From a phage, in assembly GCA_016389475.1 (NCBI GenBank), contig GCA_016389475.1_3042.1: DNA of 64,000 nt. One strand, written 5' to 3'. The position numbers and the translations under genes are program-made. The notes under the pieces were generated by a model that saw nothing but the letters and a program-made list of their open reading frames with translations, ran no database searches and was not told the DNA's origin. This document shows, one piece after another, positions 8,545-31,653 of the stretch. Position 1 is the stretch's first letter. Every line of letters starts with the position of its first letter.

Positions 8545-8585
8545 AAGAACATTATACCACATCCTTGTGGCAAAGTAAACTAGTT
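8545..8585 (-). promoter_or_regulatory. early sigma70-type promoter (GTTTAC-N18-TATAAT)
   Basis: Minus-strand GTTTAC at 8580..8575 and TATAAT at 8556..8551 with an 18-nt spacer and TGn extended -10; SD and ATG follow. Confidence 0.6.
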
Positions 8586-9599
8586 CAGTGCATTTAATGC
8601 ACTGTTCAGTTTAGAACGTTGCTTTGTCAGATTTTGAACCCTTGACTGAGCTTGTTCTAACGCCTTTTCAGCTTCTAGCACTTCATTGGTCGCTTTAACG
8701 AGTTCATCATCTACTGCCTTGATAGACTTCTCAATCGCATCCGCGTGCCATTTTTCAACAGGTTTAAGACTCGGATTTTCAACAGGAAGAAAATTCACTT
8801 TATTGAATTTCCATGCATCATTATTACCTGAACTATACATCCAAAATTTAGGATCGTTTGATAAGTAATTGGATAAATTTAAGTTATCTTGTACTTCCTG
8901 CTTTTTCTCTTGCGGGACTTCGTCCTTTCTCAAAAAATCGTATTTAAATGAAACGATCATATCAAGTTCATATGATGTTGTATCTAACTTAAATCGTTCA
9001 AAACGAGGTAAAATCTTAGACTGAACAGCGGCAACAACATCCATATACTTAAATGCTTCTGTCAACTGTGATTTAAGGCATTCACAAATTGAAAGAGAAT
9101 TTTTTGTATTAGGTTTAAAGCTAATTCGTGCAGTTCTATTATTTTCTTTTAATGGTCTTACTTCCATCTGAAGAGTATAACCATCAAATTTCAGGTTCTT
9201 TAAGTTATTGTCAGAACCTTTTAATCGACTAGCTGTCGACAAAATTTGCTTTAACTGTTTACGGAATAGAGCAATAAATCTCCATTCAATACGATAATGA
9301 TTGGGATTGAAAAATCCAGATGATAAATCAACCTTACTCTGACCAACACCTTGAACAAATAGAGGATTTTTATAATCAATAGTTTTACAGAAATCGGTGA
9401 GCTGCTCACGAGCAGTCATTTGTGTAATATATCCCGCTTTACTAAAATGACGTAACCATTCACTGCTATTCATATACTTAAAGTGAATGGAACTATTAAC
9501 TCTATCAGGGTCTAAATTATTTTGGCACAAAAATGTCATAACATCACGAGTATAGCTGGCATTACGAACCATATCTTCAATTTGAGAACGAGTTTTCAT
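8580..9599 (-). CDS. hypothetical protein, paralog-family member 3 (339 aa) with C-terminal coiled-coil tail
   Basis: N-terminus MKTRSQIEDMV... C-terminal heptad-like region. Confidence 0.6.
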   Translation of the reverse strand: MKTRSQIEDMVRNASYTRDVMTFLCQNNLDPDRVNSSIHFKYMNSSEWLRHFSKAGYITQMTAREQLTDFCKTIDYKNPLFVQGVGQSKVDLSSGFFNPNHYRIEWRFIALFRKQLKQILSTASRLKGSDNNLKNLKFDGYTLQMEVRPLKENNRTARISFKPNTKNSLSICECLKSQLTEAFKYMDVVAAVQSKILPRFERFKLDTTSYELDMIVSFKYDFLRKDEVPQEKKQEVQDNLNLSNYLSNDPKFWMYSSGNNDAWKFNKVNFLPVENPSLKPVEKWHADAIEKSIKAVDDELVKATNEVLEAEKALEQAQSRVQNLTKQRSKLNSALNALN

Positions 9600-9607
9600 A
9601 GTGTTCC

Positions 9608-10495
9608 TTAAGATTTAAGTAAATCAACAATTTTAATTAACTTTTCACGCTCAGATTTAGCTTTACTACTCAATCCAGATAGTCTAAAGATTTCATCGTC
9701 ATATTGTTGAATAGAAATATTCAGCTCTTCAATTTGCTTATTAAAATAATCAATTTGCTCAGAATGTTTTTCGTTACTACGAACTGGTACAGGTTTTGTA
9801 GGCAATTTAGTTGAACTGGATTCATCCGGGCGATAAATTAAAATACAACTTGAACCAATTGGACATTTTGCACCAGATGAATATTCTAATGTTCCAGATT
9901 CTTTTAAAACTTCAAAAGCTAAACAGAGATGATGACCCATATTGACATAATCAGTAGAGCAAGCTCTGATGTAATAATCATCTCCACGAGTACTAAATTT
10001 AAAGCATTTAAGGTCTTCTGTATTATTGGTCTTAAAAATCATTTGTTTATCTAGACCTTTAGCTAATCGAGCGCCTAATGCTAATAATCGTCGTTGATTT
10101 TCCCACAAATCTGCAATCATTTGGTCAAATGATAATTTTGGCATTAGTCGACCATAAAGGTCATATCCTTTATTATAATTACGAAGAATTTCACTCGCAT
10201 TAATACGAGACAATGCTCCAATTTTATTAAGGGCTTTCATGATGCGATTAGATAAACTCATTCCAGATCCGTTTGTTCGCTGTAAATGTTTTTCTAATCC
10301 AAATCCAATATCAACTTTAAATTTATCTAAAATTTCAGCATGAACATCTCTGTCAATAACATTCAAATCCAAAGTTGGGTTAAATCTATGAAAAAATTTA
10401 TCTGGCTCTCCACGACGAAGTACAGTCCATTCATTCAATTTTTTATTAACTAAAGATTTAATTACTGTATTGACATTATTAATTACTACTGACAT
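9608..10495 (-). CDS. hypothetical protein, paralog-family member 4 (295 aa from ATG 10495) with C-terminal coiled-coil tail
   Basis: GAGG before the ATG at 10495 (MSVVINNVNTVIKSL...). The track start at 10531 would overlap the upstream gene. Confidence 0.55.
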   Translation of the reverse strand: MSVVINNVNTVIKSLVNKKLNEWTVLRRGEPDKFFHRFNPTLDLNVIDRDVHAEILDKFKVDIGFGLEKHLQRTNGSGMSLSNRIMKALNKIGALSRINASEILRNYNKGYDLYGRLMPKLSFDQMIADLWENQRRLLALGARLAKGLDKQMIFKTNNTEDLKCFKFSTRGDDYYIRACSTDYVNMGHHLCLAFEVLKESGTLEYSSGAKCPIGSSCILIYRPDESSSTKLPTKPVPVRSNEKHSEQIDYFNKQIEELNISIQQYDDEIFRLSGLSSKAKSEREKLIKIVDLLKS

Positions 10496-10502
10496 ATTTT
10501 CC

Positions 10503-10910
10503 TCACTCAATTTCAATTTTACTAAATACACAGAATATGATGGAAAAGACTATATAAGCACCGCATACAGATTGAACTAATACCATTCCAAAGAACCAAA
10601 CGATATTATCAAACAATGTCTGTTTTACGTCGAAAGGACGTAAACTTACAGTAATATTATCACCTTTTTCTATTGAAGAATACATCTCTGGGGAAATATA
10701 TTCACTAAATCTATAACCGTCTTTGAGTTCATATACGGCAATAAACGATAAACTAGACCCCTTTCCTTGAGTTCCTGTAATGGTATTAACTACAGTAACA
10801 TCATAATCTTTATAATGCATATAATCATTAATAGCATAATAACCATATGCAATTACTATACATAAACAACATATCAATAAATTCAATCTTTTAATTATCA
10901 ACTGTTTCAT
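10503..10910 (-). CDS. membrane protein (135 aa), N-terminal and C-terminal hydrophobic helices
   Basis: ORF with LLICCLCIVIAYGYYAI and WFFGMVLVQSVCGAYIVFSIIFCVF segments. Confidence 0.5.
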   Translation of the reverse strand: MKQLIIKRLNLLICCLCIVIAYGYYAINDYMHYKDYDVTVVNTITGTQGKGSSLSFIAVYELKDGYRFSEYISPEMYSSIEKGDNITVSLRPFDVKQTLFDNIVWFFGMVLVQSVCGAYIVFSIIFCVFSKIEIE

Positions 10911-10965
10911 AATAATCTCAATTAAAAGGGCTTAGAACCATTATACCATCCTTGGTATAAAGCGG

Positions 10966-11493
10966 TTATGCGAGTACCGTCTTTAACCGTTCTTCAAATT
11001 TCCGAAGAGTGTTCTGGCGTTCAGCTCTTTGCTTTTTGTAAGTTTCAATACGCTCTGAAATGAGAGTGTATCGTTCATTTACTGATTCTTTCATAAAATC
11101 AGGAATTTCACGAGAAGCTTTAATCTCATCAAATTTATCAATAACAGCTTGCTCTTCAGCAATTAAGTTATCATACATTAAAATATCTTTCTTGATGAAC
11201 TCAATATCTTCTTGAGTTACACGAGATAATTTAGATGCTTTATCCTTTTTGTACTGTTCGTTAGTATCACGAGACCAGTGTAATGTACGATTTTTATTCG
11301 TATTTTTGTAAATTTCTACAATACCAATTTCATCAATAATAACGATCCAATTCCAACGGGATTTGTAAATTTGTCCTCCATCAACAGTGATTTCACCTCC
11401 GATTGAGATGTCATTAAAGAACTTGCTTTGTGCTTCAGATTTAAATTTACCGTCGTTATAATTTACCAGGTTGAAAATATCTTTAGCGTTCAT
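10966..11493 (-). CDS. hypothetical protein (175 aa) with C-terminal coiled-coil
   Basis: ORF preceded by a promoter-like element and GGAGG Shine-Dalgarno. Confidence 0.55.
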   Translation of the reverse strand: MNAKDIFNLVNYNDGKFKSEAQSKFFNDISIGGEITVDGGQIYKSRWNWIVIIDEIGIVEIYKNTNKNRTLHWSRDTNEQYKKDKASKLSRVTQEDIEFIKKDILMYDNLIAEEQAVIDKFDEIKASREIPDFMKESVNERYTLISERIETYKKQRAERQNTLRKFEERLKTVLA

Positions 11494-11551
11494 GTTTTAC
11501 CTCCAGTAGTTGATAGGTCTATAATAACATAACCATAGACCTTGTAAACAA

Positions 11552-11839
11552 CTAAAAGAAACTTTTTTCGGTATTTTTTCCACTGAACCAAACAGACTTC
11601 GGGATTTTTTGTAATTTTTCAGATTTAAGTTTCTCTTCCTGTTCTTTCTTATATACACTCTTGTCGTACTGGAGCATCTCTAGGGCATTCTTTTGCAAAC
11701 GATCTAAGGTAATTAAGGCTTTAGTTTTTCCTTTCAAGGAAGAGTCCTGGCGAACTTCCTCGCTATATTGCATCGTAGAACTAACCATACGATGTGCATA
11801 CAGTTCGACTGCGGCTTTAATTTTTTGCATAAAATCCAT
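11552..11839 (-). CDS. hypothetical protein (95 aa), lysine-rich
   Basis: ORF in early orientation. Confidence 0.45.
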   Translation of the reverse strand: MDFMQKIKAAVELYAHRMVSSTMQYSEEVRQDSSLKGKTKALITLDRLQKNALEMLQYDKSVYKKEQEEKLKSEKLQKIPKSVWFSGKNTEKSFF

Positions 11840-11977
11840 AACATATCCTCTTTGATTTGTACATCATTATTTTTAAATATTTCTATGCCCTCAGTAGGTT
11901 CCTGGTGTCCTTCTTTGAGGTAAGCCATATGATTATTCATCTTTATGGCTTTTGTTACCTCAGAACTTCCTATAAGC

Positions 11978-12946
11978 TTATTTCAGTAAAGTAACTTCCG
12001 AGATTTCTTCCCAACCATCTTTATCAGTTGAAATAAAATCTGCTACATAAAGAGCCGTACGTAATGATACATTGCGAAGACGAGATACGTTAGCCTTCAT
12101 CCAGGACAATGCTTTATACGTTTCTGCATCCGTCAGACCACGTTTCTGCATCATGTCAGTAGATAATATTACATCTTCAACTCGAACCATAATCTCTTCA
12201 TTAGAGTGTACTCCAAGGTCGAGATACACTGAACGAGATACTAAAGCTTGAAGGTGTGGAGCAAGTTTCGAACCCCGTTCTAACTCTTTATCGATATCAA
12301 CGTTTGTAATGAAAACGATAGTACCTTCAAACTCAAATTCTTTATCAATACCCTTATCCTCGAGATAAGATGACGCAGTGCTCCAACAAACTTTGCGTTT
12401 ATCTCCGGTATCTAATGCTGCTTTAAGAAGGTTCAGGATGTCCATATCTGAGAATACGTCAACGTCATCGATTAAGAGAACGCTGTCTTCATCACGGTTG
12501 AGCCAAAGTTGTTCGTAAAGGCCAATACCAGAGATTTTACCATTAATGCTTTTGTATTTGATGAAACCGTTATCATTAGCATTATTAAGTGCTTTATCCA
12601 GAGAATACGTTTTACCAATACCTGCTGCTCCCGAGATAATTAATGAACGAATGTTTCCGTTAATAATACCATTCGTCATCATTCCCATAACATTAAATCT
12701 TTTATTAATGCGGGTTTTCATATCTTCATACGATTCTTTAACTTCTTCAACTTTTACACCATCATATGAAATGTCTGATTTGTAAACCCAAACACCGCGA
12801 CGCTTACCGTCAATTTCAACAAAAACTTTACCATCTCCTTGTGCATCTACCGGAGCATTATCTGGGAACCATTCACCTAAGAGCTCAAAAGTTCCAGAGA
12901 TTTCTTTACCGAAGTAGATACCCTTATTGATAGTTACAGTTTTCAT
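11978..12946 (-). CDS. P-loop NTPase (AAA-like ATPase), 322 aa from ATG 12946
   Basis: Walker A GAAGIGKT(Y)S and Walker B-like hhhhDDVD (VLLIDDVDVF). GGAG before the ATG at 12946. Confidence 0.65.
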   Translation of the reverse strand: MKTVTINKGIYFGKEISGTFELLGEWFPDNAPVDAQGDGKVFVEIDGKRRGVWVYKSDISYDGVKVEEVKESYEDMKTRINKRFNVMGMMTNGIINGNIRSLIISGAAGIGKTYSLDKALNNANDNGFIKYKSINGKISGIGLYEQLWLNRDEDSVLLIDDVDVFSDMDILNLLKAALDTGDKRKVCWSTASSYLEDKGIDKEFEFEGTIVFITNVDIDKELERGSKLAPHLQALVSRSVYLDLGVHSNEEIMVRVEDVILSTDMMQKRGLTDAETYKALSWMKANVSRLRNVSLRTALYVADFISTDKDGWEEISEVTLLK

Positions 12947-12974
12947 TTTATTCTCCAAATCCGTATCAGTTGAT

Positions 12975-13012
12975 AGTTGTATAGTACCATAAAGCTTTAT
13001 GCTTGTAAACCG
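12975..13012 (-). promoter_or_regulatory. early promoter (GTTTAC-N18-TACTAT) driving the ATPase gene
   Basis: Minus-strand GTTTAC at 13010..13005; -10 TACTAT at 12986..12981; shared leader motif CAACTATCAACTGA before the SD. Confidence 0.55.
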
Positions 13013-13027
13013 TTTTGTGAAAAATTT

Positions 13028-13058
13028 TTGAAATAAAAAAGGGAGCCCGAAGGCTCCC
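13028..13058 (-). terminator. rho-independent terminator
   Basis: GGGAGCC-cgaa-GGCTCCC hairpin followed on the minus strand by TTTTTTATTTC. Sits 3 nt past the stop of the 13061..14074 gene. Confidence 0.7.
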
Positions 13059-13060
13059 TA

Positions 13061-14074
13061 TCATTTATAATAACTTCGGTGGTTTTCAAGATAGACCTTC
13101 TCAAGGAAGTCATCCCAGAAACCCATGTCTACTTTTTGCTGCATACCGTTCTTAGAAGCTTCAGTAGATGCTGCTTCTACTTGATCGACCACATCTTCCA
13201 AAAACTCTTGAACTGTTTTAAATGGATGTTTACCCAACTTCACGTCGAGAATAAATGGAGCATCTTGGAGTGGATAAACCAAGTCACCAGTTTTGTAAAT
13301 TTCCAATAGTTGGAGTCCACCACGACAAGCATGACTCAGAGCTTTCCAGTCAATGCCTTCATTAGCTTCGGCTTTACGAGCACGTTCACCATATTCAGCA
13401 TCTAATTTATTCAGTGACTGCTTAAGCTCAATAAGAGAAAGTGTTGTCTGATATTTACGACCCAACACAGTGTAGAACGTTTGCGGGCCTGTTTTCTCGT
13501 GATTATGGAACACCCATTCACAGAATTCGTTTTCTGGAAGACGATGCTTAATATCTTCAACTTTAGTGCGACGCTGCTTAATAGAACCATCTTCTTGGTA
13601 ATCAACCCATTGCTCGGGGATTTGATTAACTACTTTCAATACATCACGTAATGCAGCCAAACGAGAACCCTTGACACCGTATTTAGAAGCTTGCTTGCGA
13701 ACATATCCTAAATAGGATTTCATGTTAGTCGTATAAAAACGAGAACGGTTGTCTTGAATAAACTTCCACACATCAGGCAAATCAGATTTAACCACTAGTT
13801 CAGGTGGAGTGTGAAGCATATCCAATGCTACAGTTTCACCATCTGCTGCTAATTTAAAGAAATATTTAAGACTGTATAGTTCATGGTCAATATCATCTTT
13901 AGTGTTTTTAGATGATGTGTTGTTAGTGTTTTTACTCATGTGCTCTTTGACATTTCCGATAAGAATATCACGAGCAGGAGGAACAAAAATTTCTTTAAAA
14001 TCTACATCAGATTCTGGGGTAGAAGTTCCATAAAGATGACTACCAAAATAGCTTTTCATTACTGTTTTCATCAT
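13061..14074 (-). CDS. Pol-beta-superfamily nucleotidyltransferase-like protein (337 aa)
   Basis: N-terminal G-S-x10-D-V-D (FGSHLYGTSTPESDVDF) with a downstream acidic residue in a hydrophobic strand (ETVALDMLH), followed by a roughly 230-aa helical region. ATGA overlap with the upstream membrane-protein gene. Confidence 0.55.
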   Translation of the reverse strand: MMKTVMKSYFGSHLYGTSTPESDVDFKEIFVPPARDILIGNVKEHMSKNTNNTSSKNTKDDIDHELYSLKYFFKLAADGETVALDMLHTPPELVVKSDLPDVWKFIQDNRSRFYTTNMKSYLGYVRKQASKYGVKGSRLAALRDVLKVVNQIPEQWVDYQEDGSIKQRRTKVEDIKHRLPENEFCEWVFHNHEKTGPQTFYTVLGRKYQTTLSLIELKQSLNKLDAEYGERARKAEANEGIDWKALSHACRGGLQLLEIYKTGDLVYPLQDAPFILDVKLGKHPFKTVQEFLEDVVDQVEAASTEASKNGMQQKVDMGFWDDFLEKVYLENHRSYYK

Positions 14075-14532
14075 TCAGCCTTATATTCAATAACAGGACA
14101 TACTTTAGCTTTACGAGCTTTTAAAAATTCAACGATAATCGATTTCTTGGGTTGAATAGGAGGTAAACCTTTATACGCCCTATCAATATTTTCTACGTGT
14201 AAAGCATAATCCTTTTTCCATTTATAATCTTTATATTTTTCACGCAAATGTGCAGGAATAACAAATGAACCGATAATAAGTAAAACAACCAAAAGCGCAA
14301 GTATAAATGCTGATGGAAGCAAAGTCCATAAACTACCAAAAATAAGCCAACGCTGTAGGCTTTCTGCACAAATAATTGTTAGCCCTACGAGTATAGCACA
14401 TCCAAAAATAGAAACGAAAAATGTAGGAATGGCAATAGACCAAAAATATGCGCATAGTGTCTTAGGTCGTTGCCATTCATCGTTAAACAATTTGAATAAT
14501 TTATAGTGCCAAGAGTTTTCATTAATAATCAT
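14071..14532 (-). CDS. multi-pass membrane protein (153 aa)
   Basis: Three hydrophobic segments (SIAIPTFFVSIFGCAILVGLTIIC; LIFGSLWTLLPSAFILALLVVLLIIGSFVI). Confidence 0.6.
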   Translation of the reverse strand: MIINENSWHYKLFKLFNDEWQRPKTLCAYFWSIAIPTFFVSIFGCAILVGLTIICAESLQRWLIFGSLWTLLPSAFILALLVVLLIIGSFVIPAHLREKYKDYKWKKDYALHVENIDRAYKGLPPIQPKKSIIVEFLKARKAKVCPVIEYKAE

Positions 14533-14534
14533 AA

Positions 14535-15056
14535 TTATCCTTTCATTGAAGGCGTAACGGTTGTTAAATACTTAATCATAGCTTCAGCTTCTGATTTTGA
14601 CAATGAAATTTCTTCATTGTTTTGACGAATAGAAATAAAATCCGGATGACGGTCACCACCAGCTTTTAAAACACACATATAAGTATCAACTTCATCTTCA
14701 ATATTTGAAATGATTGAAGCAGTTCCACATGAATGCGGTTTTTGATAAATCAATGCAGCTTTTCTTCCGCCATTTGACTGTTCATAAACTTTTAATACAT
14801 CAAACAAATCACTTCTTTTATCAATAGCTAAAATGTTATTTTCATCTTCAATGTTAAATCCTTCGGATACTTCATAAAGTGTCACCCATAAATCGCCAAT
14901 ATCAATAACAGCATTTACTTTTCCATGACTTTCAAGAGCATGACAAATTTTCTTGATTTCGTCATAACTCATTTTAATAATATCATCTCCTTGACTAAGA
15001 AAGATGTCATTTTTAAATTCAACACGAATTAAACCGCTTCCACTTGAAATAAACAT
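14535..15056 (-). CDS. hypothetical protein (173 aa), paralog of the next gene
   Basis: Shares GFNIE..., DxFDxxKxY and a C-terminal ...KYLTTVTPSM motif with the 15063..15620 product. Confidence 0.55.
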   Translation of the reverse strand: MFISSGSGLIRVEFKNDIFLSQGDDIIKMSYDEIKKICHALESHGKVNAVIDIGDLWVTLYEVSEGFNIEDENNILAIDKRSDLFDVLKVYEQSNGGRKAALIYQKPHSCGTASIISNIEDEVDTYMCVLKAGGDRHPDFISIRQNNEEISLSKSEAEAMIKYLTTVTPSMKG

Positions 15057-15062
15057 ATTTCC

Positions 15063-15620: not shown

Positions 15621-15749
15621 AATTACATACTCCTTTGAATAATATCAATAATGTTGTTCACCAGATTATAGGTAAACAAAGGATAATTATATTGAATCAT
15701 CACATACACAACAAACAAAATTTTCATTCTCTTCTCCTCAGTAGTTGAC

Positions 15750-15787
15750 AAGATTACTATACCATAACCTTGCCAACTTGTAAACCA
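15750..15787 (-). promoter_or_regulatory. early promoter (GTTTAC-N18-TATAGT) at the head of the cassette
   Basis: Minus-strand GTTTAC at 15785..15780, -10 at 15761..15756, then the shared leader TCAACTACTGAGGAG. Confidence 0.55.
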
Positions 15788-15957
15788 TTAAATGGCGTTT
15801 TCAATAAAATTCTGAAGCTTTGTGTGAGCATCAACCATGATTTTCATTTCTTCTTTGGCGAAAGCTGTACCTCTTTCCCGAGAAGAACATTCATAGTCAG
15901 AAACTGCATTAGCATATTCTTCGATTAGTTTCATTAAAAACATCTGTTTTTCAGTTT
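15787..15957 (-). CDS. hypothetical small protein (56 aa)
   Basis: Hand-translated ORF (MKTEKQMFLMKLIEEYANAVSDYECS...). ATGA overlap with the upstream gene stop. Confidence 0.3.
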
Positions 15958-16351: not shown

Positions 16352-16539
16352 TATTCCACCACATATGACAGAGAGAATATTGCGCACGCCATGTGAGTTG
16401 CAACTTCATCACACATATTATAACGTTTCTTAAGAAGTTCTACAAGTTCTTCACTAGTAACTTCATCCATGTCGACGAAAAAATCACCATTAATGATGAC
16501 GTAGATATTTCCTTCTTGATTGAGTGCTTCAATTTTCAT
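16351..16539 (-). CDS. hypothetical protein (62 aa from ATG 16539)
   Basis: GAGGAG Shine-Dalgarno before the ATG at 16539; promoter just upstream. Confidence 0.45.
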
Positions 16540-16561: not shown

Positions 16562-16599
16562 AGTTGTATAGTATCACAGCTCAAACGGAAAGTAAACCG
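16562..16599 (-). promoter_or_regulatory. early promoter (GTTTAC-N18-TACTAT)
   Basis: Minus-strand GTTTAC at 16597..16592; -10 at 16573..16568. Confidence 0.55.
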
Positions 16600-16634
16600 G
16601 TAAAATGAAAAAAGTCTCCCGAAGGAGACTAATG

Positions 16635-19388: not shown

Positions 19389-19726
19389 CTAGTACTCAAT
19401 CCTCGATTATAAGAATCTACCAAACGGTCAACCATTGAATGACAAGCGGCTTTATCTTTCTCCTCCGCAACTGAACATTCTAAAGTATTCCACTTTTTAG
19501 CATATCGTTTTAACAATGTATCGTTTTTGTATCTACTTGATTTATCTCTTTCTCCGTCTTTATATGCATATATTAATTTCTGCGCAAATTCAGCTTGGCA
19601 TGCTTTATTTTTCCCGCAATAATCCGCTGCAGTACGGTTTACATACTCTCTAATTTCAGTATATGATGTATCTGCTAACGCAGAAAATGAAATTAATCCT
19701 ATACATAAAACCAAAATTTTAGTCAT
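19385..19726 (-). CDS. secreted small protein (113 aa) with N-terminal signal peptide
   Basis: MTKILVLCIGLISFSALA signal-like N-terminus; four cysteines. Confidence 0.5.
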   Translation of the reverse strand: MTKILVLCIGLISFSALADTSYTEIREYVNRTAADYCGKNKACQAEFAQKLIYAYKDGERDKSSRYKNDTLLKRYAKKWNTLECSVAEEKDKAACHSMVDRLVDSYNRGLSTR

Positions 19727-20271: not shown

Positions 20272-20733
20272 TCATTGAGTTTTAATTACTGCTTTAGAAG
20301 CCTTTCCTGGTAAACGACGACTGTTGATAATTGCCATCCTGCATTGGAGTGACGGGTCTTTGAACTTCTCATTAGGTTTACAAACTGTAAATCCAAGCCA
20401 AAGATTTCCATCTGTGATTTCTAAACGTCCAGGACGATATTCAACCCCATCAATAAAATCCTCGTCAATGTCAGGACGCGGAGGCATACTCAGGAATTCA
20501 TTAACTTCTAAAACATGGTCTTTTATTTTGTGGAATAATTCAAAAACATATGTCTCATCAATCTCCCGTTGAATTGCACGATCAAGAAGATGTTGAGAAT
20601 ATTTTAGATGAAACGATGAGACTCCTGCTGCTTTTGATGCCTCACGAATCTCATTGTTAATTTGACGAAACTCCGACTCAAAATGACGACGAAGCTTATT
20701 TCGACGGATAAAAACTTCTGTATTGATAGTCAT
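20272..20733 (-). CDS. regB: sequence-specific endoribonuclease RegB
   Basis: 153 aa, MTINTEVFIRRNKLRRHF..., recognised as T4 RegB; canonical early promoter directly upstream. Confidence 0.8.
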   Translation of the reverse strand: MTINTEVFIRRNKLRRHFESEFRQINNEIREASKAAGVSSFHLKYSQHLLDRAIQREIDETYVFELFHKIKDHVLEVNEFLSMPPRPDIDEDFIDGVEYRPGRLEITDGNLWLGFTVCKPNEKFKDPSLQCRMAIINSRRLPGKASKAVIKTQ

Positions 20734-20754: not shown

Positions 20755-20795
20755 AGAAAAATTATACCACAGTCAAGAGGAAAAGTAAACAGTTA
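20755..20795 (-). promoter_or_regulatory. early promoter (GTTTAC-N18-TATAAT) for regB
   Basis: Minus-strand GTTTAC at 20790..20785, TATAAT at 20766..20761 with TGG extended -10, then GAGGAG SD and ATG. Confidence 0.7.
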
Positions 20796-22930: not shown

Positions 22931-23404
22931 TTATTTGAACGATTTAACGTACTGAATAGAACCTTTACTATTTACAAAGGCAATTTTACCATTTTTATTA
23001 TACATGGTAGCAGTACGCTGATAGCCATAAGTTTGCTTACCAGATTGATAACCAACTAATGCAAAATTATCTTCACCCATTTTATTCTGTTTAGCGCGAA
23101 TGCGTTCATGACCATGTGCCATAAGAACCTTAGCATCACCAGTTACAATGGATCGACGAGTTTTTTCATCTTCAACTGTATTAACAAAGTCGTCAAATGA
23201 ATCAAATTTAGCATGAGATTTATTATACAGTTTTCCATCTACTGCATAATTATATCCCTGTACATCCATCTCAACTTCTGTACCATCATCCAATACAGCA
23301 GTAATTTTCTGTCCTTTTTTAAATTTCAAAAGATCAGTAAAAGATTCAGCAATAATTTGAGAATTAATAGCTGCTTCAGTGATAAATTCTTGATATGTTT
23401 TCAT
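22931..23404 (-). CDS. capsid internal protein (IP family) with N-terminal capsid-targeting sequence
   Basis: N-terminus MKTYQEFITEA matches the T-even internal-protein CTS. Basic 157-aa protein at the ipIII/ipII position upstream of e. Confidence 0.65.
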   Translation of the reverse strand: MKTYQEFITEAAINSQIIAESFTDLLKFKKGQKITAVLDDGTEVEMDVQGYNYAVDGKLYNKSHAKFDSFDDFVNTVEDEKTRRSIVTGDAKVLMAHGHERIRAKQNKMGEDNFALVGYQSGKQTYGYQRTATMYNKNGKIAFVNSKGSIQYVKSFK

Positions 23405-23454
23405 GTGTTTCCTTTAAATATTTTAATTAGTAATTTGTCTCTTCAAGCAACTGT

Positions 23455-23490
23455 GAATATACTATCACAATTCTAGGAGAAAGTAAACAA
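23455..23490 (-). promoter_or_regulatory. early promoter (GTTTAC-N18-TAGTAT) for the internal-protein gene
   Basis: Minus-strand GTTTAC at 23488..23483; -10 at 23464..23459. Confidence 0.5.
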
Positions 23491-24479: not shown

Positions 24480-24949
24480 TCAGTGATAAAGTTATTTAAA
24501 TTTTGAGTATATTTCTTTTCATCAAAAATCTTTTGTTGTCTGCGTAGTCGCCATGGCATTTCAATGAACGTGTACCATATCCCAGATAATATTGCTGCAG
24601 TAAAAATATTAACAAGTATAGTTAAAAGAATCCAATCTCCTATTCTGTCCATTGGATTTTTTATAAAAAAGTAAAATACGAATGATGTCACAGGAAGACT
24701 AATAATATACCACAGAATCATAATTTTATCTGTGAACCAATCAGCGTTCGTTAACTTAGCGCGACCATTATGAATACACACGAATTTATCATCTGTTATA
24801 ATAGATGGCTTAGCTGCTTGATATCCCATTCTAAACTCCCTAATCAACAAATTTTTCATATCTTCGGAACAACCATTCCAGTCAACTCTATCAACTGAAA
24901 TGCCATCATCCCCATCATCTAAATCATACCAGCGAGTTTTTAAAATCAT
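24461..24949 (-). CDS. membrane protein (162 aa)
   Basis: Two hydrophobic helices (IMILWYIISLPVTSFVFYFFI; WILLTILVNIFTAAILSGIWYTFI). Confidence 0.5.
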   Translation of the reverse strand: MILKTRWYDLDDGDDGISVDRVDWNGCSEDMKNLLIREFRMGYQAAKPSIITDDKFVCIHNGRAKLTNADWFTDKIMILWYIISLPVTSFVFYFFIKNPMDRIGDWILLTILVNIFTAAILSGIWYTFIEMPWRLRRQQKIFDEKKYTQNLNNFITECRKLK

Positions 24950-26265: not shown

Positions 26266-26313
26266 TTTTCATTCCTATTTACTCCAAGTAATAGGGGCCG
26301 AAGCCCCTTATCA

Positions 26314-26907
26314 TTATTTCAGAGAATTAATATATTCCTGAACATCGGCAGAGGTAGTTTCAACCCCAGAAATATTGCCATTAAAGGTTTCAACTCGGGC
26401 AAGAGTATCTTCAATATCAACCTTAGTCAGCGCTGCAATTTCAACTACATCATCAGCAGTACTAATTCCGAGGGCATTCGCGGCGCGAGTTTCACGGATA
26501 TATTCCAATTTAACTGCAAGTTCTTGGCGAGCATCATCTAACTCAACTACTTTCTTGGCGATTTCAATTCGCATTTCAGCATAACCATCAGCTTTAGTAG
26601 TCAGCTGCTCAGCTGTTCGACGATATAGTAAACCGAGTTTAGCATGCATTGTTACATCTTGACCTTCAGAAAGGAGCTTGCGAATTTCGCGCTCTTTTGA
26701 TTCGGCCTGCTTATTCTTTTCGACAATAAGTTCACGAATACGCTTTTCTTCGTTAATAGATTTAATGGAAGCAGTTTTTAGGTCTTTAATCTTATCAAGT
26801 AGTTTTGCTGCTGCAGCAGTATACTGTTCTTCAACAGATAGATTTTTAGCCATAACAGAACCAAGTTTAGTGCGAATAAACTCAACAATTTTCTTCAGTG
26901 TGTTCAT
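26314..26907 (-). CDS. coiled-coil protein (197 aa)
   Basis: Extended heptad-rich sequence rich in E/K/R/L. Confidence 0.5.
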
Positions 26908-26949
26908 AGTATTTCCTTAGGTTGATTAAAATTAAAATCCACAGAAAAA

Positions 26950-27483
26950 TTATATCATGCTATTTAAGAGATGTAAACTATTTTTAATTTTACAAATTCG
27001 TTCAGCTTCTTCAACAGCGGCAGTGATAATGCTTTTAGCTATAGGAGTACTAATACTAGTAGCTTTTACACTTAACACGATTTCTTTATCTTTACCAGGC
27101 CAACCCCACGATTTTTCACCATGAGTGCCTTTAATTACAGCAGACACCTCAAGTGAGCATCCATTATCACATGTTTTTACATTAACAACCCAAGTGTCAC
27201 TTTTCTCAACCGGTTTATCCCAGTAAATATTGAGAATACGCGGGACATCAAATTTAGCAGGGCAAATCTTAACCGTAAGACCTTCGCTTTCTAGCCAATT
27301 AATAAGAGGACGTTCATACATGCGGCGATGTGGGCTTTGAACTCGACAAGCCTTGTACCCATTGCTTGCGGCTTCACTAAGCTCTTCTAATACCTGCTTT
27401 TGCATTATTGATAAGATACCATCAAAAGATTTTTCGGAAGTTTCATTCAGTTCGGTATAAAGAGACATAACAGTTTTCCTCAA
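26950..27483 (-). CDS. hypothetical protein (177 aa)
   Basis: Track ORF. Confidence 0.5.
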   Translation of the reverse strand: MRKTVMSLYTELNETSEKSFDGILSIMQKQVLEELSEAASNGYKACRVQSPHRRMYERPLINWLESEGLTVKICPAKFDVPRILNIYWDKPVEKSDTWVVNVKTCDNGCSLEVSAVIKGTHGEKSWGWPGKDKEIVLSVKATSISTPIAKSIITAAVEEAERICKIKNSLHLLNSMI

Positions 27484-27524
27484 ATTATAGGCTCATAATA
27501 TCTCAATCATGAGCCTATGTAAAC

Positions 27525-27800
27525 TTATTTCATATTATTGAAATATTCTTCTGCAATTTCGTCGTTATCATGATAAACTTTAGAAGACAGTTTAACATAA
27601 CCTTCAGCAGTGAACATGTTAATCACAACCTTTACAGTATACCACTGACCATCTTCATTACCCATTACTGCGTAAGTTTCAAACATCGGATGATCAGGAC
27701 CGATAACTTTAATATCATTCACTGTACGACCAAAATCTTCTGAAACACATTTCATAAAGAAGTTGAACAGTTCGCCGTAATTATCCATTTCATTCTCCAA
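27525..27800 (-). CDS. hypothetical acidic protein (91 aa)
   Basis: ORF preceded by an early promoter and GGAG SD. Confidence 0.5.
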   Translation of the reverse strand: MENEMDNYGELFNFFMKCVSEDFGRTVNDIKVIGPDHPMFETYAVMGNEDGQWYTVKVVINMFTAEGYVKLSSKVYHDNDEIAEEYFNNMK

Positions 27801-27824
27801 GTTGTTTTCTGTATCAGTAGTTGA

Positions 27825-27862
27825 TAGTTGTATAGTACCATGGAAGAACAGGGATGTAAACA
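27825..27862 (-). promoter_or_regulatory. early promoter (GTTTAC-N18-TACTAT)
   Basis: Minus-strand GTTTAC at 27860..27855; -10 at 27836..27831; shared leader TCAACTACTGA. Confidence 0.55.
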
Positions 27863-27990
27863 GTTTTGTGAAAAATTTTTTAAAAAGTTTTGGGGAATTC
27901 TAGGGCAAGGAGGGGAAATCAAAGGATAGGATAATATATTATAAAGGGTAGAAACTAAATGATGCCTAGAGAGGCCTGGAAAGGCCTAGA

Positions 27991-28022
27991 TACCAAAAAG
28001 CCCCAACCTTTTGGTCGGGGCT
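27991..28022 (-). terminator. rho-independent terminator (copy A of a duplicated hairpin)
   Basis: AGCCCCGACC-aaaa-GGTTGGGGCT hairpin followed by a U-run on the minus strand, just downstream of the 28030..28503 gene. Confidence 0.6.
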
Positions 28023-28029
28023 AAGAATG

Positions 28030-28503
28030 TTATTTGATTTGTTTAGCAGACCAAATGCGGTCTTTAATAATTTTTTGGATGTCTTCAACATACTCTAGGT
28101 CATGAGCATGTGGGTTATCTTTAAAGCTATGAGCACGAGCTAGCTTTTGGCCTTCAGTTTTGATTACTAAAAGCTCTTTAAGGATAGCTTCATATTTGGA
28201 GATAATTCCTTTAACGATATTTTTTTCTTGTGCGACTTTAGGATCTGCTTTAGGAGCAGGTTTACCCGAAGCCTTTGCAAAAGCAGCGCCAGTAGCAACT
28301 AAACTTTTCCAGGCCATACTAACTGCATTTCCCGTAAATCCTTCCGCTTTCATGTCGCGTGCGAACTGAAATCGCGATTCATCAGAAGCATCTTTGTAAG
28401 AATATTTACCCGCTGCAATGGCTGCTTTTGCGACAGCTTGAATTTCGGTGCTAGATGCTTCATTTAACACCGCTTCATTTAAAAATTGAGTATATGATTT
28501 CAT
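28030..28503 (-). CDS. internal-protein-like protein (157 aa) with CTS-like N-terminus
   Basis: N-terminus MKSYTQFLNEAVL resembles the MKTYQEF capsid-targeting sequence. Alanine/lysine-rich basic protein. Confidence 0.5.
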   Translation of the reverse strand: MKSYTQFLNEAVLNEASSTEIQAVAKAAIAAGKYSYKDASDESRFQFARDMKAEGFTGNAVSMAWKSLVATGAAFAKASGKPAPKADPKVAQEKNIVKGIISKYEAILKELLVIKTEGQKLARAHSFKDNPHAHDLEYVEDIQKIIKDRIWSAKQIK

Positions 28504-28544
28504 CTTATTTCCTGTTTTAATTCGTGGATTTAATATACTTATTT

Positions 28545-28577
28545 ATACTAAAAAGCCCCAACCTTTCGGTCGGGGCT
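28545..28577 (-). terminator. rho-independent terminator (copy B of the duplicated hairpin)
   Basis: Same hairpin as 27991..28022 (loop tttc instead of tttt), followed by a U-run on the minus strand. Confidence 0.55.
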
Positions 28578-28589
28578 AAGCCTTGCGGC

Positions 28590-28700
28590 AACCTTGTCGG
28601 GGTTCCACCTGCTAAGGCAAGTGTTTGTACGAAACGCCGGGATTCGAACCCGGTTATTAAGCAGTTGACGCTACTCAATATTTTTAAAAGGCCATATCTC
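28590..28700 (-). ncRNA. tRNA-like fragment or stable structured RNA
   Basis: Perfect T-arm (CCGGG-UUCGAAU-CCCGG) on the minus strand, but I could not pair a 7-bp acceptor stem or find a convincing anticodon arm. Confidence 0.25.
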
Positions 28701-28884
28701 GACCATATCCGAACGTTCCGTCAAAAACGCTACTCGGTTTACTGCAAAGATATTTCCTCGAATCGATAATTCGGTGCGCCGTTTCTGCTGTGATAGTAAA
28801 GAGCCAGAACACAGTAAAACTGTGGGAGGAAACTATACTCCAGGGAACATCAGTCCGACGACTTACCGGTAGCGACCCGGTTTC

Positions 28885-29235
28885 TTAGTATTCTTTTAAA
28901 GCATCAACCTGTTCACGACGTTTACGCCATAAATCAATTACTTCATACGCAGATTCAGCATTTCGAATTGGACGGCATTTATATAAAGACTTGTGATTTT
29001 GATATTGTGTAGATAACGGAATTTTATCTAAAAGGTCTTTACGTTCAAAATATTCGTAACCATCTAAACCAAATGAACGATTTTTGAGAAATTGCCAATG
29101 ACCAAATTCGTTTTCGACATAAACATAATCTGCATGCTGATAAAGCAAATTAATTACGCGTTCAGAAATAACAGTATCATTATGATTAAAATAGAATGTT
29201 AAATCATGAACTACTAAATAAACATTACCTTTCAT
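28885..29235 (-). CDS. hypothetical protein (116 aa)
   Basis: Track ORF between the tRNA-Arg gene and the structured RNA region. Confidence 0.5.
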   Translation of the reverse strand: MKGNVYLVVHDLTFYFNHNDTVISERVINLLYQHADYVYVENEFGHWQFLKNRSFGLDGYEYFERKDLLDKIPLSTQYQNHKSLYKCRPIRNAESAYEVIDLWRKRREQVDALKEY

Positions 29236-29253
29236 ATTTTCCTCACTTATAAT

Positions 29254-29329
29254 TGGTCGAGGCAGTAGGGATCGAACCTACGACCCAGGACTTAGAAGGT
29301 CCTTGCTCTTCCTTCTGAGCTATGCCCCG
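29254..29329 (-). tRNA. tRNA-Arg (anticodon TCT), CCA encoded
   Basis: Manually folded cloverleaf: acceptor CGGGGCA/TGCCTCG, D-arm GCTC/GAGC, anticodon loop CTTCTAA, T-loop TTCGATC. Confidence 0.8.
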
Positions 29330-29333
29330 TAAT

Positions 29334-29409
29334 TGGGGTGACCGATGGGAGTCGAACCCATGACTACGAGAATCACAATCTCGAGTTCTACCAACTGAAC
29401 TACGGCCAC
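29334..29409 (-). tRNA. tRNA-His (anticodon GTG), CCA encoded
   Basis: Acceptor GTGGCCG/CGGTCAC, anticodon stem CGAGA/TCTCG, loop TTGTGAT, T-loop TTCGACT, discriminator C. Confidence 0.7.
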
Positions 29410-29523
29410 ATTAATACCTACTCCAACAATCATGATGTCTTCACACGAAATTAAGAGAAGAGTGATCAGTTCAACCCCTATAATCGCGTCAAGTAGATAT
29501 TAATGTGACAGTTGTCACAAATT

Positions 29524-29598
29524 TGGCGGACGTGATAGGATTCGAACCTATAACCAATCGCTTAACAGGCGATCGCTCTGCCATTGAGCTACACATCC
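29524..29598 (-). tRNA. tRNA-Asn (anticodon GTT), CCA encoded
   Basis: Acceptor GGATGTG/CACGTCC, anticodon stem ATCGC/GCGAT, loop CTGTTAA, T-loop TTCGAAT. Confidence 0.7.
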
Positions 29599-29602
29599 AA
29601 AT

Positions 29603-29689
29603 TGGTGGGGAGTGATGGAGTCGAACCACCCGAGTCGCAATGACAATGAATTTACAGTCCACACCGCTACCTCTACGGGATAACTCCCC
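29603..29689 (-). tRNA. tRNA-Tyr (anticodon GTA), long variable arm, CCA encoded
   Basis: Acceptor GGGGAGT/ACTCCCC, anticodon loop CTGTAAA, about 15-nt variable arm, T-loop TTCGACT. Confidence 0.65.
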
Positions 29690-29701
29690 TAATTCATAAT
29701 T

Positions 29702-29776
29702 TGGTGGCCCTGGGTGGAATTGAACCACCATCTGGCGATTATGAGTCGCTTGCTTGAACCTTCCAGCTACAGGGCC
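29702..29776 (-). tRNA. tRNA with CAT anticodon (Ile-lysidine type as in T4, or Met)
   Basis: Acceptor GGCCCTG/CAGGGCC, anticodon loop CTCATAA, T-loop TTCAATT. Confidence 0.7.
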
Positions 29777-29777
29777 T

Positions 29778-29853
29778 TGGTGCTGATTGACGGAATCGAA
29801 CCGCCGACATCCTCATTACAAGTGAGGTGCTCTACCTACTGAGCTAAATCAGC
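29778..29853 (-). tRNA. tRNA-Thr (anticodon TGT)
   Basis: Acceptor GCTGATT/AATCAGC, anticodon stem CCTCA/TGAGG, loop CTTGTAA, T-loop TTCGATT. Confidence 0.8.
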
Positions 29854-29858
29854 AAAAC

Positions 29859-29948
29859 TGGCGGAGGCGATAGGATTCGAACCTATGAGTCGCCGGAGCG
29901 ACTGCCGGTTTTCAAGACCGGTGCATTCAACCACTCTGCCACGCCTCC
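29859..29948 (-). tRNA. tRNA-Ser (anticodon TGA), long variable arm
   Basis: Acceptor GGAGGCG/CGCCTCC, anticodon stem CCGGT/ACCGG, loop CTTGAAA, T-loop TTCGAAT. Confidence 0.8.
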
Positions 29949-29950
29949 AG

Positions 29951-30024
29951 TCTCCATACAAGGATTTGAACCTTGGACCTCCTGATCCCAAATCAGGCGC
30001 TCTACCAAACTGAGCTACACGGAG
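29951..30024 (-). tRNA. tRNA-Pro (anticodon TGG), no encoded CCA
   Basis: Anticodon stem CCTGA/TCAGG, loop TTTGGGA, T-loop TTCAAAT. Only 2 nt separate it from tRNA-Ser (Pro-Ser dimer arrangement known from T4). Confidence 0.8.
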
Positions 30025-30034
30025 TAAATTAAAT

Positions 30035-30108
<74 letters not shown>

Positions 30109-30113
30109 AAATT

Positions 30114-30200
30114 TGGTGCGAGAAGTGGGACTCGAACCCACAAGGAAATCATTCCGCAGCATTTTAAGTGCTGTGCCTTTACCAATTTGACCATTCTCGC
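30114..30200 (-). tRNA. tRNA-Leu (anticodon TAA), long variable arm, CCA encoded
   Basis: Acceptor GCGAGAA/TTCTCGC, anticodon stem CAGCA/TGCTG, loop CTTAAAA. Confidence 0.8.
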
Positions 30201-30201
30201 G

Positions 30202-30274
30202 CTGGGAATAAAGGATTCGAACCTTTGCATCCTGGAATCAAAATCCAGTGCCTTACCAACTTGGCTAATTCCCA
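30202..30274 (-). tRNA. tRNA-Gln (anticodon TTG), no encoded CCA
   Basis: Acceptor TGGGAAT/ATTCCCA, anticodon stem CTGGA/TCCAG, loop TTTTGAT. 1 nt from tRNA-Leu (Gln-Leu dimer arrangement known from T4). Confidence 0.8.
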
Positions 30275-30371
30275 ATTATTAACAAAGGCTCTTTAGCAAG
30301 AACCCTTGATGATAGAGGGTATTAATCAGTGCGGTATGAGTTAATAATAACAAATAATTCTTAAAGCATAT

Positions 30372-30659
30372 TTACCATTTATGATAATACATATTTACGA
30401 TGCATTCAAGATCTAAAGGATTCTTGAAAATATCATATTCAAGAGGACCTTTTTCTGTTTCAATAAAGAAATCAAAATTTACTGTATTAAATTTACGATC
30501 TTCCTTCACTAATTTAACTTGAGAAGATGAACGGTCAACATAAACCTTTTCAACTTCAAAACATGTTAAAACGCCATAATCATCAATCAAGGCTTTAGCC
30601 GCGTCTTGATCATATTTATATCCATTTTCAATGGACGATACTTTAGCATAAAGAATCAT
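30372..30659 (-). CDS. hypothetical protein (95 aa)
   Basis: Track ORF. Confidence 0.5.
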   Translation of the reverse strand: MILYAKVSSIENGYKYDQDAAKALIDDYGVLTCFEVEKVYVDRSSSQVKLVKEDRKFNTVNFDFFIETEKGPLEYDIFKNPLDLECIVNMYYHKW

Positions 30660-30661
30660 TA

Positions 30662-31081
30662 TTACCCTTCATCAACAATAGTATGAGTGTGGGCATTTAC
30701 AATTTGCCACCAATCAAAGCGATTAGAACCATACATTGGTTTGTTCTCATTTTCTTTGATAATGTCACGGAGTTCATCTTCAGTAGCGGCTTTCGCGATT
30801 AAATCAGCATACCCACCGCGAGGATAATAATTATCACCCGCAAAAAGTAAAAAGTTTGGTTTAATATTATTAAACTCTTCAAGAGTAATAACTTTTCCTG
30901 TCGGTTGAACAATCTCTACATATTTATATCCTAATTTTTGAGCAGCATCTACTGCTTCAAGCAAAGTATCATGAGCCCATCCAATTTGACAATCTGGCTT
31001 TTCAGATGGATTAGCCTGATAATCCGCGTACACTTTATACATTCTATTCACCTTTAGAAATTTTATCCATAACGATAGCAA
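30662..31081 (-). CDS. hypothetical protein (139 aa; start may be the internal Met)
   Basis: Track ORF. Confidence 0.5.
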   Translation of the reverse strand: MLSLWIKFLKVNRMYKVYADYQANPSEKPDCQIGWAHDTLLEAVDAAQKLGYKYVEIVQPTGKVITLEEFNNIKPNFLLFAGDNYYPRGGYADLIAKAATEDELRDIIKENENKPMYGSNRFDWWQIVNAHTHTIVDEG

Positions 31082-31229
31082 TTAAACCAATTAAAAATGC
31101 TACTACAAGTGAAAATACATTTTCTGCTGTAGTTAATAATCCGCATATAAATCCAACAAACATTGAAAAACTAAAAGCAGAAGCAGAAATTGCAATAGCA
31201 ACATTTCGAATTAATTCACAACGTTTCAT
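31044..31229 (-). CDS. small membrane protein (61 aa)
   Basis: Two hydrophobic helices; promoter and GAGGAG SD upstream. Confidence 0.45.
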   Translation of the reverse strand: MKRCELIRNVAIAISASAFSFSMFVGFICGLLTTAENVFSLVVAFLIGLIAIVMDKISKGE

Positions 31230-31251
31230 TTTATTCTCCTCAGTAGTTGAT

Positions 31252-31289
31252 AGGGTAATAGTATCACAACTAAAACCCTATGTAAACAA
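31252..31289 (-). promoter_or_regulatory. early promoter (GTTTAC-N18-TACTAT)
   Basis: Minus-strand GTTTAC at 31287..31282; -10 at 31263..31258; leader TCAACTACTGAGGAG. Confidence 0.55.
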
Positions 31290-31305
31290 CTTTGTGAAAA
31301 ATTTA

Positions 31306-31590
31306 TTACAAAAGATTTTTAGCAATAATTTTAAGCTGAGCTACTGAAATATGCTTGGCTTTAAACAAAGCAGTTTCTTCAGCAGGGGAGATAACGATTG
31401 TAGCACCATCTTTCTTAGCGGACCATCCATCACCCAGGTAAACAGTACCTTTGACTTCTTCGCCATCAACCAGGCTAATCATCGGTTTACCTTCACGTCC
31501 TTTGTTTGCTTTAATAACTTCAGAAGTAAGGGTCGCTTCAGTCAAAGTAGAAGCGTTAGTGGTTGAAGTGAATTCTTGATAAGTTTTCAT
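31306..31590 (-). CDS. ipI: capsid internal protein (IPI-like) with capsid-targeting sequence
   Basis: 94 aa with N-terminus MKTYQEFTST; located between the tRNA cluster and 57B as ipI is in T4. Confidence 0.6.
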   Translation of the reverse strand: MKTYQEFTSTTNASTLTEATLTSEVIKANKGREGKPMISLVDGEEVKGTVYLGDGWSAKKDGATIVISPAEETALFKAKHISVAQLKIIAKNLL

Positions 31591-31614
31591 TTTTATTTTC
31601 CTAATTAATTTTGA

Positions 31615-31653
31615 TGAGGTAATAGTATCACTACCTCATCAGCATGTAAACAA
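31615..31653 (-). promoter_or_regulatory. early promoter (GTTTAC-N18-TACTAT) for the ipI-like gene, embedded in a 9-bp inverted repeat
   Basis: Minus-strand GTTTAC at 31651..31646; -10 at 31627..31622. Inverted repeat GATGAGGTA / TACCTCATC flanks the -10. Confidence 0.5.

Follow-up and report, generated by a model that had tools for sequence, protein, structure and literature searches.

Early promoters of bacteriophage T4, the 'uber' sigma-70 promoters, share a consensus with GTTTAC at positions -36 to -31, a GT-rich or TGn segment before a TAnnnT -10 element, and an A-rich UP element (PMC1524935, PMC2988021). Composite cassettes of an early promoter and a stem-loop, termed promoter-early stem-loops (PeSLs), flank differential open reading frames (ORFs) and include chimeric elements; they were described in RB49 and phi1 (Arbiol et al. 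2010, PMC2839356) and extended to T4/PST, with the consensus TTTACW-N17-TAYWAT, and to KVP40/nt-1 (Comeau et al. 2014, PMC4122927). According to the accounts given in these two papers, Repoila et al. (1994) reported analogous T4-early-promoter elements with weaker AT-rich stem-loops at both T-even internal protein (IP) loci. In T4 e, soc, 49 and I-TevI, the promoter lies inside a hairpin containing the ribosome-binding site (RBS), so that the Shine-Dalgarno (SD) sequence is paired in read-through transcripts and free in the local transcript (PMC3014915). Here, we analyzed a 64,000-nucleotide (nt) stretch of phage DNA (contig GCA_016389475.1_3042.1 of GenBank assembly GCA_016389475.1, hereafter the window), whose minus strand carries a series of GTTTAC-type sites that an original prediction had read as mobile promoter cassettes bracketing accessory genes.

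These sites are very probably sigma-70-dependent early promoters of a T4-like phage, located at T4-equivalent gene junctions and forming cassettes that occasionally recombine. The shuffling interpretation is supported in kind and is quantitatively modest, with four hot spots and no significant enrichment. The idea that promoter cassettes mediate gene shuffling in T4-type phages matches the PeSL and IP-locus literature of 1994-2014; the promoter class, the RegB-targeted leaders, the shuffling at the IP loci and the PeSL model have all been published before, and nothing in them is novel. By-products of this study are a catalogue of 14 sites for this genome and explicit examples of chimeric promoters within Tequatrovirus.

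Promoter motif and architecture

A search of the window for GTTTAC-N16-19-TAnnAT returned 14 matches, compared with 1.04 expected on both strands (100 shuffles; largest count, 4). Chance was rejected as the source of the matches, as none of the 100 shuffles attained the observed count. Thirteen matches lie on the minus strand, from 321 to 31651, and the sole plus-strand match, at 19637, is intragenic and in the wrong orientation, which is consistent with chance. The promoter set examined below consists of the 13 minus-strand TAnnAT sites plus 15756-15785, whose -10 is TATAGT (n = 14; each site is denoted by P and its higher coordinate). All nine minus-strand sites of the original prediction are present, at coordinates that had been given 4-7 nt too low. 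Their proposed architecture (GTTTAC, an 18-nt spacer and TAnnAT, with TACTAT and TGn) was recovered by the motif search, although TAnnAT applies to eight of the nine and not to the site placed at 15750 (P15785). Five further sites had been missed, at 321-350, 4848-4877, 11521-11549, 26949-26978 and 27495-27524.

The -10 is preceded by TGn at 12 of the 14 sites and reads TACTAT at five, and A+T content averages 76% over the 24 nt preceding the -35 hexamer, versus 64% window-wide. All 14 sites are on the early-gene strand, and 13 of them are followed, after 26-54 nt, by the SD sequence and ATG of a T4 early-gene orthologue. At six sites the preceding gene has its stop codon within 4 nt of the -35, which makes the cassettes very compact. 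Every site except P27524 has a motif match at the equivalent T4 junction, at record positions 41706, 47452, 50973, 53943, 55384, 57990, 58780, 62797, 66498, 69967, 70696, 73572 and 73939, the first three corresponding to P350, P4877 and P8580. No essential difference from the T4 early promoters was observed: hexamers, spacing, TGn, A/T-rich upstream regions, positions and orientation are all alike, and some cores differ by junction, as at nrdC.8, where the T4 core is not that of P11549. The PeSL consensus is matched in its -35 part at all 14 sites and in its -10 part at 12.

Scanning with a generic sigma-70 consensus gave no enrichment over shuffles (84 versus 88.9 expected, and 85 versus 77.8); hence the signal is specific to the T4-type motif. 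A tolerant scan (one mismatch, spacing of 17-19 nt) had too high a background (26 versus 13.8 expected) and contributed only P15785 and a plausible site at 33100-33129, while a position weight matrix of 80 columns, derived from 12 seeds, was overfitted and served only to recover P15785.

Leaders, upstream blocks and putative RegB sites

The promoters had also been described as sharing a near-identical leader. Sub-blocks do recur, but the 21-mer quoted for it, CAACTATCAACTACTGAGGAG, has no exact copy anywhere and occurs within three mismatches at one site only (31236-31256), so that the common leader was a composite and was overstated. The block CTATCAACTACTG is exact in three leaders (11504, 27815 and 31241), and ACTACTGAGGAG has exact copies at 15734 and 31236 and a copy with a single mismatch at 8529 (0.07 expected). 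A 21-nt upstream block absent from the original prediction, ATTTTTCACAAAGTTGTTTAC, was found with at most three mismatches at five promoters (0 expected), and the UP-region block ATTTTTCACAAAGTT is present at five sites.

GGAG occurs in the SD window of nine of the 14 promoter-proximal genes, compared with six of 59 other minus-strand genes (odds ratio 15.9, p = 6.6e-5). Exact matches to the strong RegB/S1 consensus GG*AGRAYARAA number only two in the window, in the leaders of P13010 and P31287, and versions with one mismatch are found in four further promoter leaders, including that of regB itself. Since RegB cleaves GGAG in the translation initiation regions of T4 early mRNAs (PMC3014915), the common leader would be the usual early-mRNA leader with its RegB shut-off site.

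A cassette spans about 90-130 nt and contains, from 5' to 3', an A/T-rich UP region, the GTTTAC -35, an 18-nt spacer ending in TGn, the TAnnAT -10, a short leader (often CTATCA(ACTACTG)) and a GGAG-type SD sequence 26-54 nt past the -10. Judging from T4 biology, host RNA polymerase would fire these promoters immediately after infection, and the RegB nuclease, whose gene lies behind one of them, would later cut the GGAG leaders. Identical blocks of 20-50 nt at at least 13 sites, all in one orientation, could give rise to occasional homology-driven crossover, the products of which are seen in the relatives described below. Each such crossover would delete, insert or swap the small genes between two blocks, and every gene would retain a promoter. 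With cassettes of this kind, the early accessory genes of a T4-like phage may be expressed within seconds of infection and traded with their regulation left intact, which is relevant to the evolution of host range and anti-defence functions and to phage genome annotation.

Probable cassette exchange among relatives

Positions 1-36000 of the window were aligned to 14 relatives (T4, CAM-21, G157lw, ECO4, phage 107, HY01, RB51, UGKSEcP2, PYPS2T, G8, a51, RB9, Pu-Krd-SF7 and Manna). Eight of 13 promoter junctions have an indel or replacement edge, and ten of the 66 clustered breakpoints lie within 60 nt of a promoter centre, versus about three by random placement. When some 40 distinct indel or replacement events were classified by hand, 8-9 were bounded by promoters, about ten were homing-endonuclease or intron insertions, four involved other repeats (a terminator pair, tRNA-tRNA recombination and the putative nrdC.4/nrdC.5 paralogues), and about 17 fell into no such class.

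Promoter-bounded swaps and chimeric promoters were found at only four junctions. At the first hot spot, nrdC.11/nrdC.10 (P13010), insertions in relatives map to 12938-12970 and 12994-13057: phage 107 and UGKSEcP2 have additional ORFs inserted at leader position +11, and HY01 and Manna have another ORF between 39-64-nt repeats that span promoter and terminator. At the second, e/Ip/vs.8 (P23488), one core stands before Ip4/ipIII, denV or vs.8, depending on the genome. At the third, e.8/e.7/e.6, unrelated genes take the place of the one between P27524 and P26978 in T4, G8, Manna, PYPS2T, RB9 and Pu-Krd-SF7, and a51 has just 19 nt there; the edges lie 0-22 nt from both -10 elements. At the fourth, 57B/ipI/trna.4, four relatives have an additional Ip gene, with a flanking 24-nt repeat (31247-31270) that lies inside P31287, and ipI is also exchanged for other Ip alleles. 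As to denV (endonuclease V), tblastn with T4 DenV gave no hit across the whole 64-kb window; the gene is present at the P23488 locus in ten of the 14 relatives, directly after the P23488 core in seven of those, and forms a clean 411-nt insertion at window positions 23419-23434 in four relatives.

The two IP loci account for two of the four hot spots, and alternative Ip genes are exchanged there as in the known polymorphism. Both Ip genes of the window begin with MKTYQEF, and the shared homology of Ip genes is confined to promoter, leader and N-terminal blocks: a T4 early promoter, the leader and the first ~10 codons (MKTYQEF...) are common to the alternative genes, with swap edges in the promoters and 19-37 nt into the ORFs. 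The present case differs from the IP-locus polymorphism in that two non-IP hot spots of the same kind occur, nrdC.11/nrdC.10 and e.8/e.7/e.6.

Three promoters of relatives are visibly chimeric. In phage 107, the promoter at 34398 joins the UP/-35 part of P31651 (30/31) to the spacer, -10 and sequence to +11 of P31287 (35/35), and the promoter at 14474 equals P13010 through +11 (66/66) and then runs into an unrelated gene; in Pu-Krd, the promoter at 23347 combines the upstream flank of a T4 promoter (77/81) with the P23488 core (28/35). Switching occurs at the -35/UP boundary and within the CTATCAA block. Four promoter cores are each linked to 2-4 different downstream genes across genomes, and a P31287-like core lies within an insertion at the nrdC.10 junction, 18 kb away, as an ectopic copy. 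Where swapped or inserted segments match the window, they do so only in promoter, leader or N-terminal blocks of 47-147 nt, except in a large RB9 replacement (541 nt matched), and overlapping alignment ends of 24-64 nt, i.e. direct repeats, lie exactly on promoters. The resemblance to PeSLs extends to these relationships: small accessory genes that differ between close relatives by insertion, deletion or replacement are flanked by the cassettes, and chimeric elements are found at the junctions.

Several results weigh against the view that these promoters are recombining cassettes. The excess of breakpoints at promoter junctions is not significant, either relative to other gene junctions (8/13 versus 25/58, p = 0.18, Fisher) or when only junctions with gaps of at least 25 nt are considered (8/13 versus 6/14, p = 0.28, Fisher); this differs from the PeSL case. 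Five promoter junctions are invariant across the 14 relatives, and the majority of events lie elsewhere, about 17 of the ~40 with neither promoter nor endonuclease and about ten with an endonuclease or intron. Hairpins, which belong to the PeSL concept, are absent at five of the 14 promoters (z of 0 or above in a shuffle test), and their covariation among orthologues is equivocal, substitutions being too few. In addition, we infer promoter activity in this phage from T4, whose GenBank record is devoid of promoter features and for which a literature search yielded no genome-wide start-site map; the match to mapped T4 promoters therefore draws on junction-level sequence matches and on reviews. 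As a caution, with junction-level controls promoters explain only about one fifth of the indel events of the region.

The non-significant association, the invariant junctions and the distribution of events would all be expected if the sites were ordinary conserved early promoters only, alike through selection for strong RNA-polymerase binding, in gaps that merely tolerate insertions. We consider this unlikely, because the promoters of relatives are chimeras whose switch points map to the -35/UP boundary and to +5 to +15, identical cores are joined to different genes and different upstream contexts, the exchanged segments mostly match the window in promoter, leader or N-terminal block alone, and the 24-64-nt overlaps coincide exactly with promoters. 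Recombination between promoter repeats, as originally proposed, is supported by chimeras and swaps at four junctions and not by a general enrichment of breakpoints. Promoters do bound the swapped accessory genes at these junctions, but single genes truly bracketed by two promoters number only three.

It is still less probable that homing endonucleases are the main driver of mosaicism, with repair of double-strand breaks co-converting the flanks and the promoters as bystanders. The endonuclease and intron insertions, about ten, are as many as the promoter-bounded events, yet none of the latter contains an endonuclease gene, all four hot spots are at least 0.5 kb from the endonuclease insertion sites, and the crossover points fall within promoter repeats. 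In relatives, homing endonuclease genes or the nrdD intron are located at 1859, 3135, 3613-3670, 11996, 14075-15038, 29334-29705, 29949-30030, 30203-30268 and 33763; the types include mobC/segD-like, I-TevII, seg-like, mobD, segB, HNH and mobB. The window has an empty site at all nine places, and its early region appears to be free of homing endonucleases.

Stem-loops at the promoters

Many of the promoters have a spacer that can pair with the start of the transcript or with the SD sequence, with the -10 in or near the loop, and a hairpin centred on the -10 is present at about nine of the 14 sites. Such a hairpin could form only in transcripts that enter from upstream. Pairing of the spacer with its own leader averaged -9.4 kcal/mol, compared with -6.55 for the leaders of other promoters (14 promoters; permutation p = 0.0004). 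For 25 distinct promoters from 15 genomes, the values were -9.70 and -6.38 (p at most 5e-5), and -9 kcal/mol was attained by 56% of own-leader versus 19% of other-leader pairings. In the shuffle test the strongest hairpins were those of P15785 (z = -4.3), P20790 (-4.7), P27524 (-5.0) and P31651 (-4.7); five promoters have modest ones (z of -1.1 to -1.8). A terminator-like hairpin lies upstream of P350, P13010 and P16597, and three promoters have neither hairpin nor upstream terminator. No T-run follows the -10-centred hairpins. The arm sequences vary between promoters while complementarity is kept, which argues for a strand-level structure and not for a shared protein site; a common protein-binding site behind the inverted repeats was rejected on this ground. 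Several 'orthologous' promoters are replaced cores that form different, out-of-register hairpins.

The composite cassette (AT-rich region, early promoter, stem-loop, and SD plus ATG) resembles a PeSL, with the stem-loop either between the hexamers or overlapping the -10. There are also differences: the stems here are AT-rich and variable, whereas those of RB49/phi1 are GGGG...CCCC; the T4/PST stem-loops lie just upstream of the promoter (Comeau et al.), whereas here they mostly extend across the -10; and an upstream terminator is found at only three promoters. The SD sequence lies within the 3' arm at P20790 (regB) and partly so at P16597, the same geometry as in the RBS-sequestering hairpins of T4 e, soc, 49 and I-TevI, in which the internal promoter is late or middle; from its sequence, that of the present sites would be early.

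It is conceivable, if rather doubtful, that the -10-centred inverted repeat is a general insulation device of early cassettes that silences or processes read-through transcripts. In transcripts reading through from an upstream promoter, folding might block translation, shield the leader from RegB or lead to processing, and locally started transcripts, which would lack the 5' arm, would alone be translated. If so, the expression of each accessory gene would be coupled to its own promoter, which would explain the need for a gene to travel with its promoter, and the logic known for e, soc, 49 and I-TevI, with their late or middle internal promoters, would extend to early ones.

It is very unlikely that hairpins themselves are recombinogenic, with terminator stems or -10 inverted repeats acting as cruciforms or slippage sites in place of promoter homology. 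In favour of this reading, a terminator pair (27999-28022/28554-28577) flanks an ORF variably present in relatives and hosts another insertion, and T4 deletions at GGGC/GCCC repeats are mentioned by Arbiol et al. (PMC2839356). At the promoter hot spots, however, switching takes place in the conserved -35/UP and CTATCAA blocks and not in the promoter-specific arms, and P13010 is a hot spot without a -10 hairpin.

Individual sites

All sites below are on the minus strand, and those at the hot spots carry the numbers given above. The site at 321-350 is the predicted early promoter of the 55.6 orthologue (ATG at 290) and has the upstream block ATTTTCACAAAGTT. The match at 4848-4877, inside a 49.1-like ORF upstream of pin, is doubtful as a promoter, being without TGn or hairpin, with 38% A+T upstream and located within an ORF. 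At 8551-8580, the early promoter of nrdC.4 (ATG at 8522) has a leader terminating in TCTACTGAGGAG and a CCACA/TGTGG hairpin in the spacer (z = -1.4). That of nrdC.8 at 11521-11549 (ATG at 11493) has a spacer one base shorter, CTATCAACTACTGGAGG in the leader and a hairpin, AGGTCTAT...ATAGACCT, across the -10. The nrdC.10 promoter at 12981-13010 (ATG at 12946; hot spot 1) has the SD sequence GGAGAATAAAA, the exact strong RegB site consensus, and an intrinsic terminator directly upstream at 13040-13059 (AGGGAGCC-TTCG-GGCTCCCT followed by a T-run).

The promoter at 15756-15785, with the -10 TATAGT, precedes mobD.2 (ATG at 15727) and has a strong 15-bp hairpin centred on the -10 that was not equalled in any of 200 shuffles. 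At 16568-16597, the promoter of mobD.5 (ATG at 16539) follows directly on an intrinsic terminator at 16613-16630 (AGTCTCC-TTCG-GGAGACT, then TTTTT). The regB promoter at 20761-20790 (ATG at 20733) has an 18-bp hairpin in which the spacer is paired with the SD sequence AAGAGGAG (-22.4 kcal/mol). That at 23459-23488 precedes the Ip4-like internal protein gene (ATG at 23404), at the IP locus adjoining e (hot spot 2).

Hot spot 3 is formed by the e.6 promoter at 26949-26978 (ATG at 26907), the downstream boundary of the swapped gene 26950-27468, and the promoter of this ORF at 27495-27524, the upstream boundary, with a 13-bp hairpin centred on the -10. The ORF occupies the place of T4 e.7, upstream of which T4 has no motif match. 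It also overlaps P26978, its TGA stop doubling as the TGn of the extended -10; the upstream gene of T4 and G8 stops directly before GTTTAC. The e.8 promoter at 27832-27861 (ATG at 27788) has both the upstream block and the CTATCAACTACTG leader.

Hot spot 4 includes the trna.4 promoter at 31258-31287 (ATG at 31229), which combines the upstream block with the leader CTATCAACTACTGAGGAG and matches the RegB site consensus exactly, and the ipI promoter at 31622-31651 (ATG at 31590), with a 13-bp hairpin centred on the -10. Besides these, the minus strand at 33100-33129 reads GTTTAA-N18-TATAAT and has a TG extension; it precedes the start of gene 1 (dNMP kinase) by 25 nt and is a plausible extra promoter with a one-base -35 variant.

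Genomic context and other rearrangements

Positions 8000-32000 matched 1198 phage records, 401 of them with at least 80% of the region covered. The top matches are 94-98% identical and every one is a Tequatrovirus (T4-like coliphages such as CAM-21, G157lw, RB51 and HY01); by sequence similarity, with 94-98% identity to CAM-21, RB51 and also T4, the window is a Tequatrovirus, a T4-like coliphage. Gene names were assigned via synteny with T4 (AF158101), CAM-21 and RB51. The minus strand from 1 to ~35000 carries genes 55.6 to 4, in the order, from high to low coordinate, 4, 2, 3, 1, 57A, 57B, ipI and trna.4-.2; eleven tRNAs; e.8-e.2, nudE, e and the Ip4-like gene; vs.8-vs.3, regB, vs.1, vs, tk.4-tk, rI and mobD.5-.1; and nrdC.11-nrdC, 49.x, pin, 49, nrdD, nrdG, nrdH and 55.6. 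The plus strand then carries the late genes 53, 5, 6 and onward, and a change in the sign of the GC skew at ~34 kb agrees with this strand switch.

Some rearrangements of the region involve sequences other than promoters. The 49.2/49.3 exchange was found by Comeau et al. not to be PeSL-mediated (PMC4122927), in agreement with the non-promoter events seen here at 4931-5646. Two near-identical strong terminator hairpins on the minus strand, at 27999-28022 and 28554-28577 (AGCCCCGACC-NAAA-GGTTGGGGCT, then TTTT), enclose an ORF at 28030-28503 (157 amino acids) that is missing in T4, RB9 and Manna. In these three phages, alignments overlap by 35-36 nt at the terminator repeat, and a51 and UGKSEcP2 have an additional ~640 nt there. 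The crossover sites around this ORF are the terminator repeats, not promoters.

The tRNA cluster at 29254-30274 contains 11 genes (Arg, His, Asn, Tyr, Met, Thr, Ser, Pro, Gly, Leu and Gln), compared with eight in T4. The tRNA-His gene is missing in some relatives, and the alignment ends there overlap by 34-72 nt, which suggests recombination among neighbouring tRNA genes. A 1.9-kb deletion in Manna (window 7760-9690) fuses nrdC.4 with nrdC.5, with loss of P8580; the two genes are adjacent and similar in size (about 335-340 amino acids), and the deletion looks like recombination between putative tandem paralogues. Finally, e.2 is missing in Manna and Pu-Krd-SF7 (window 24490-24946), with alignment ends that overlap by 30 nt, so this deletion was probably mediated by a short direct repeat close to where e.2 and e.3 begin.

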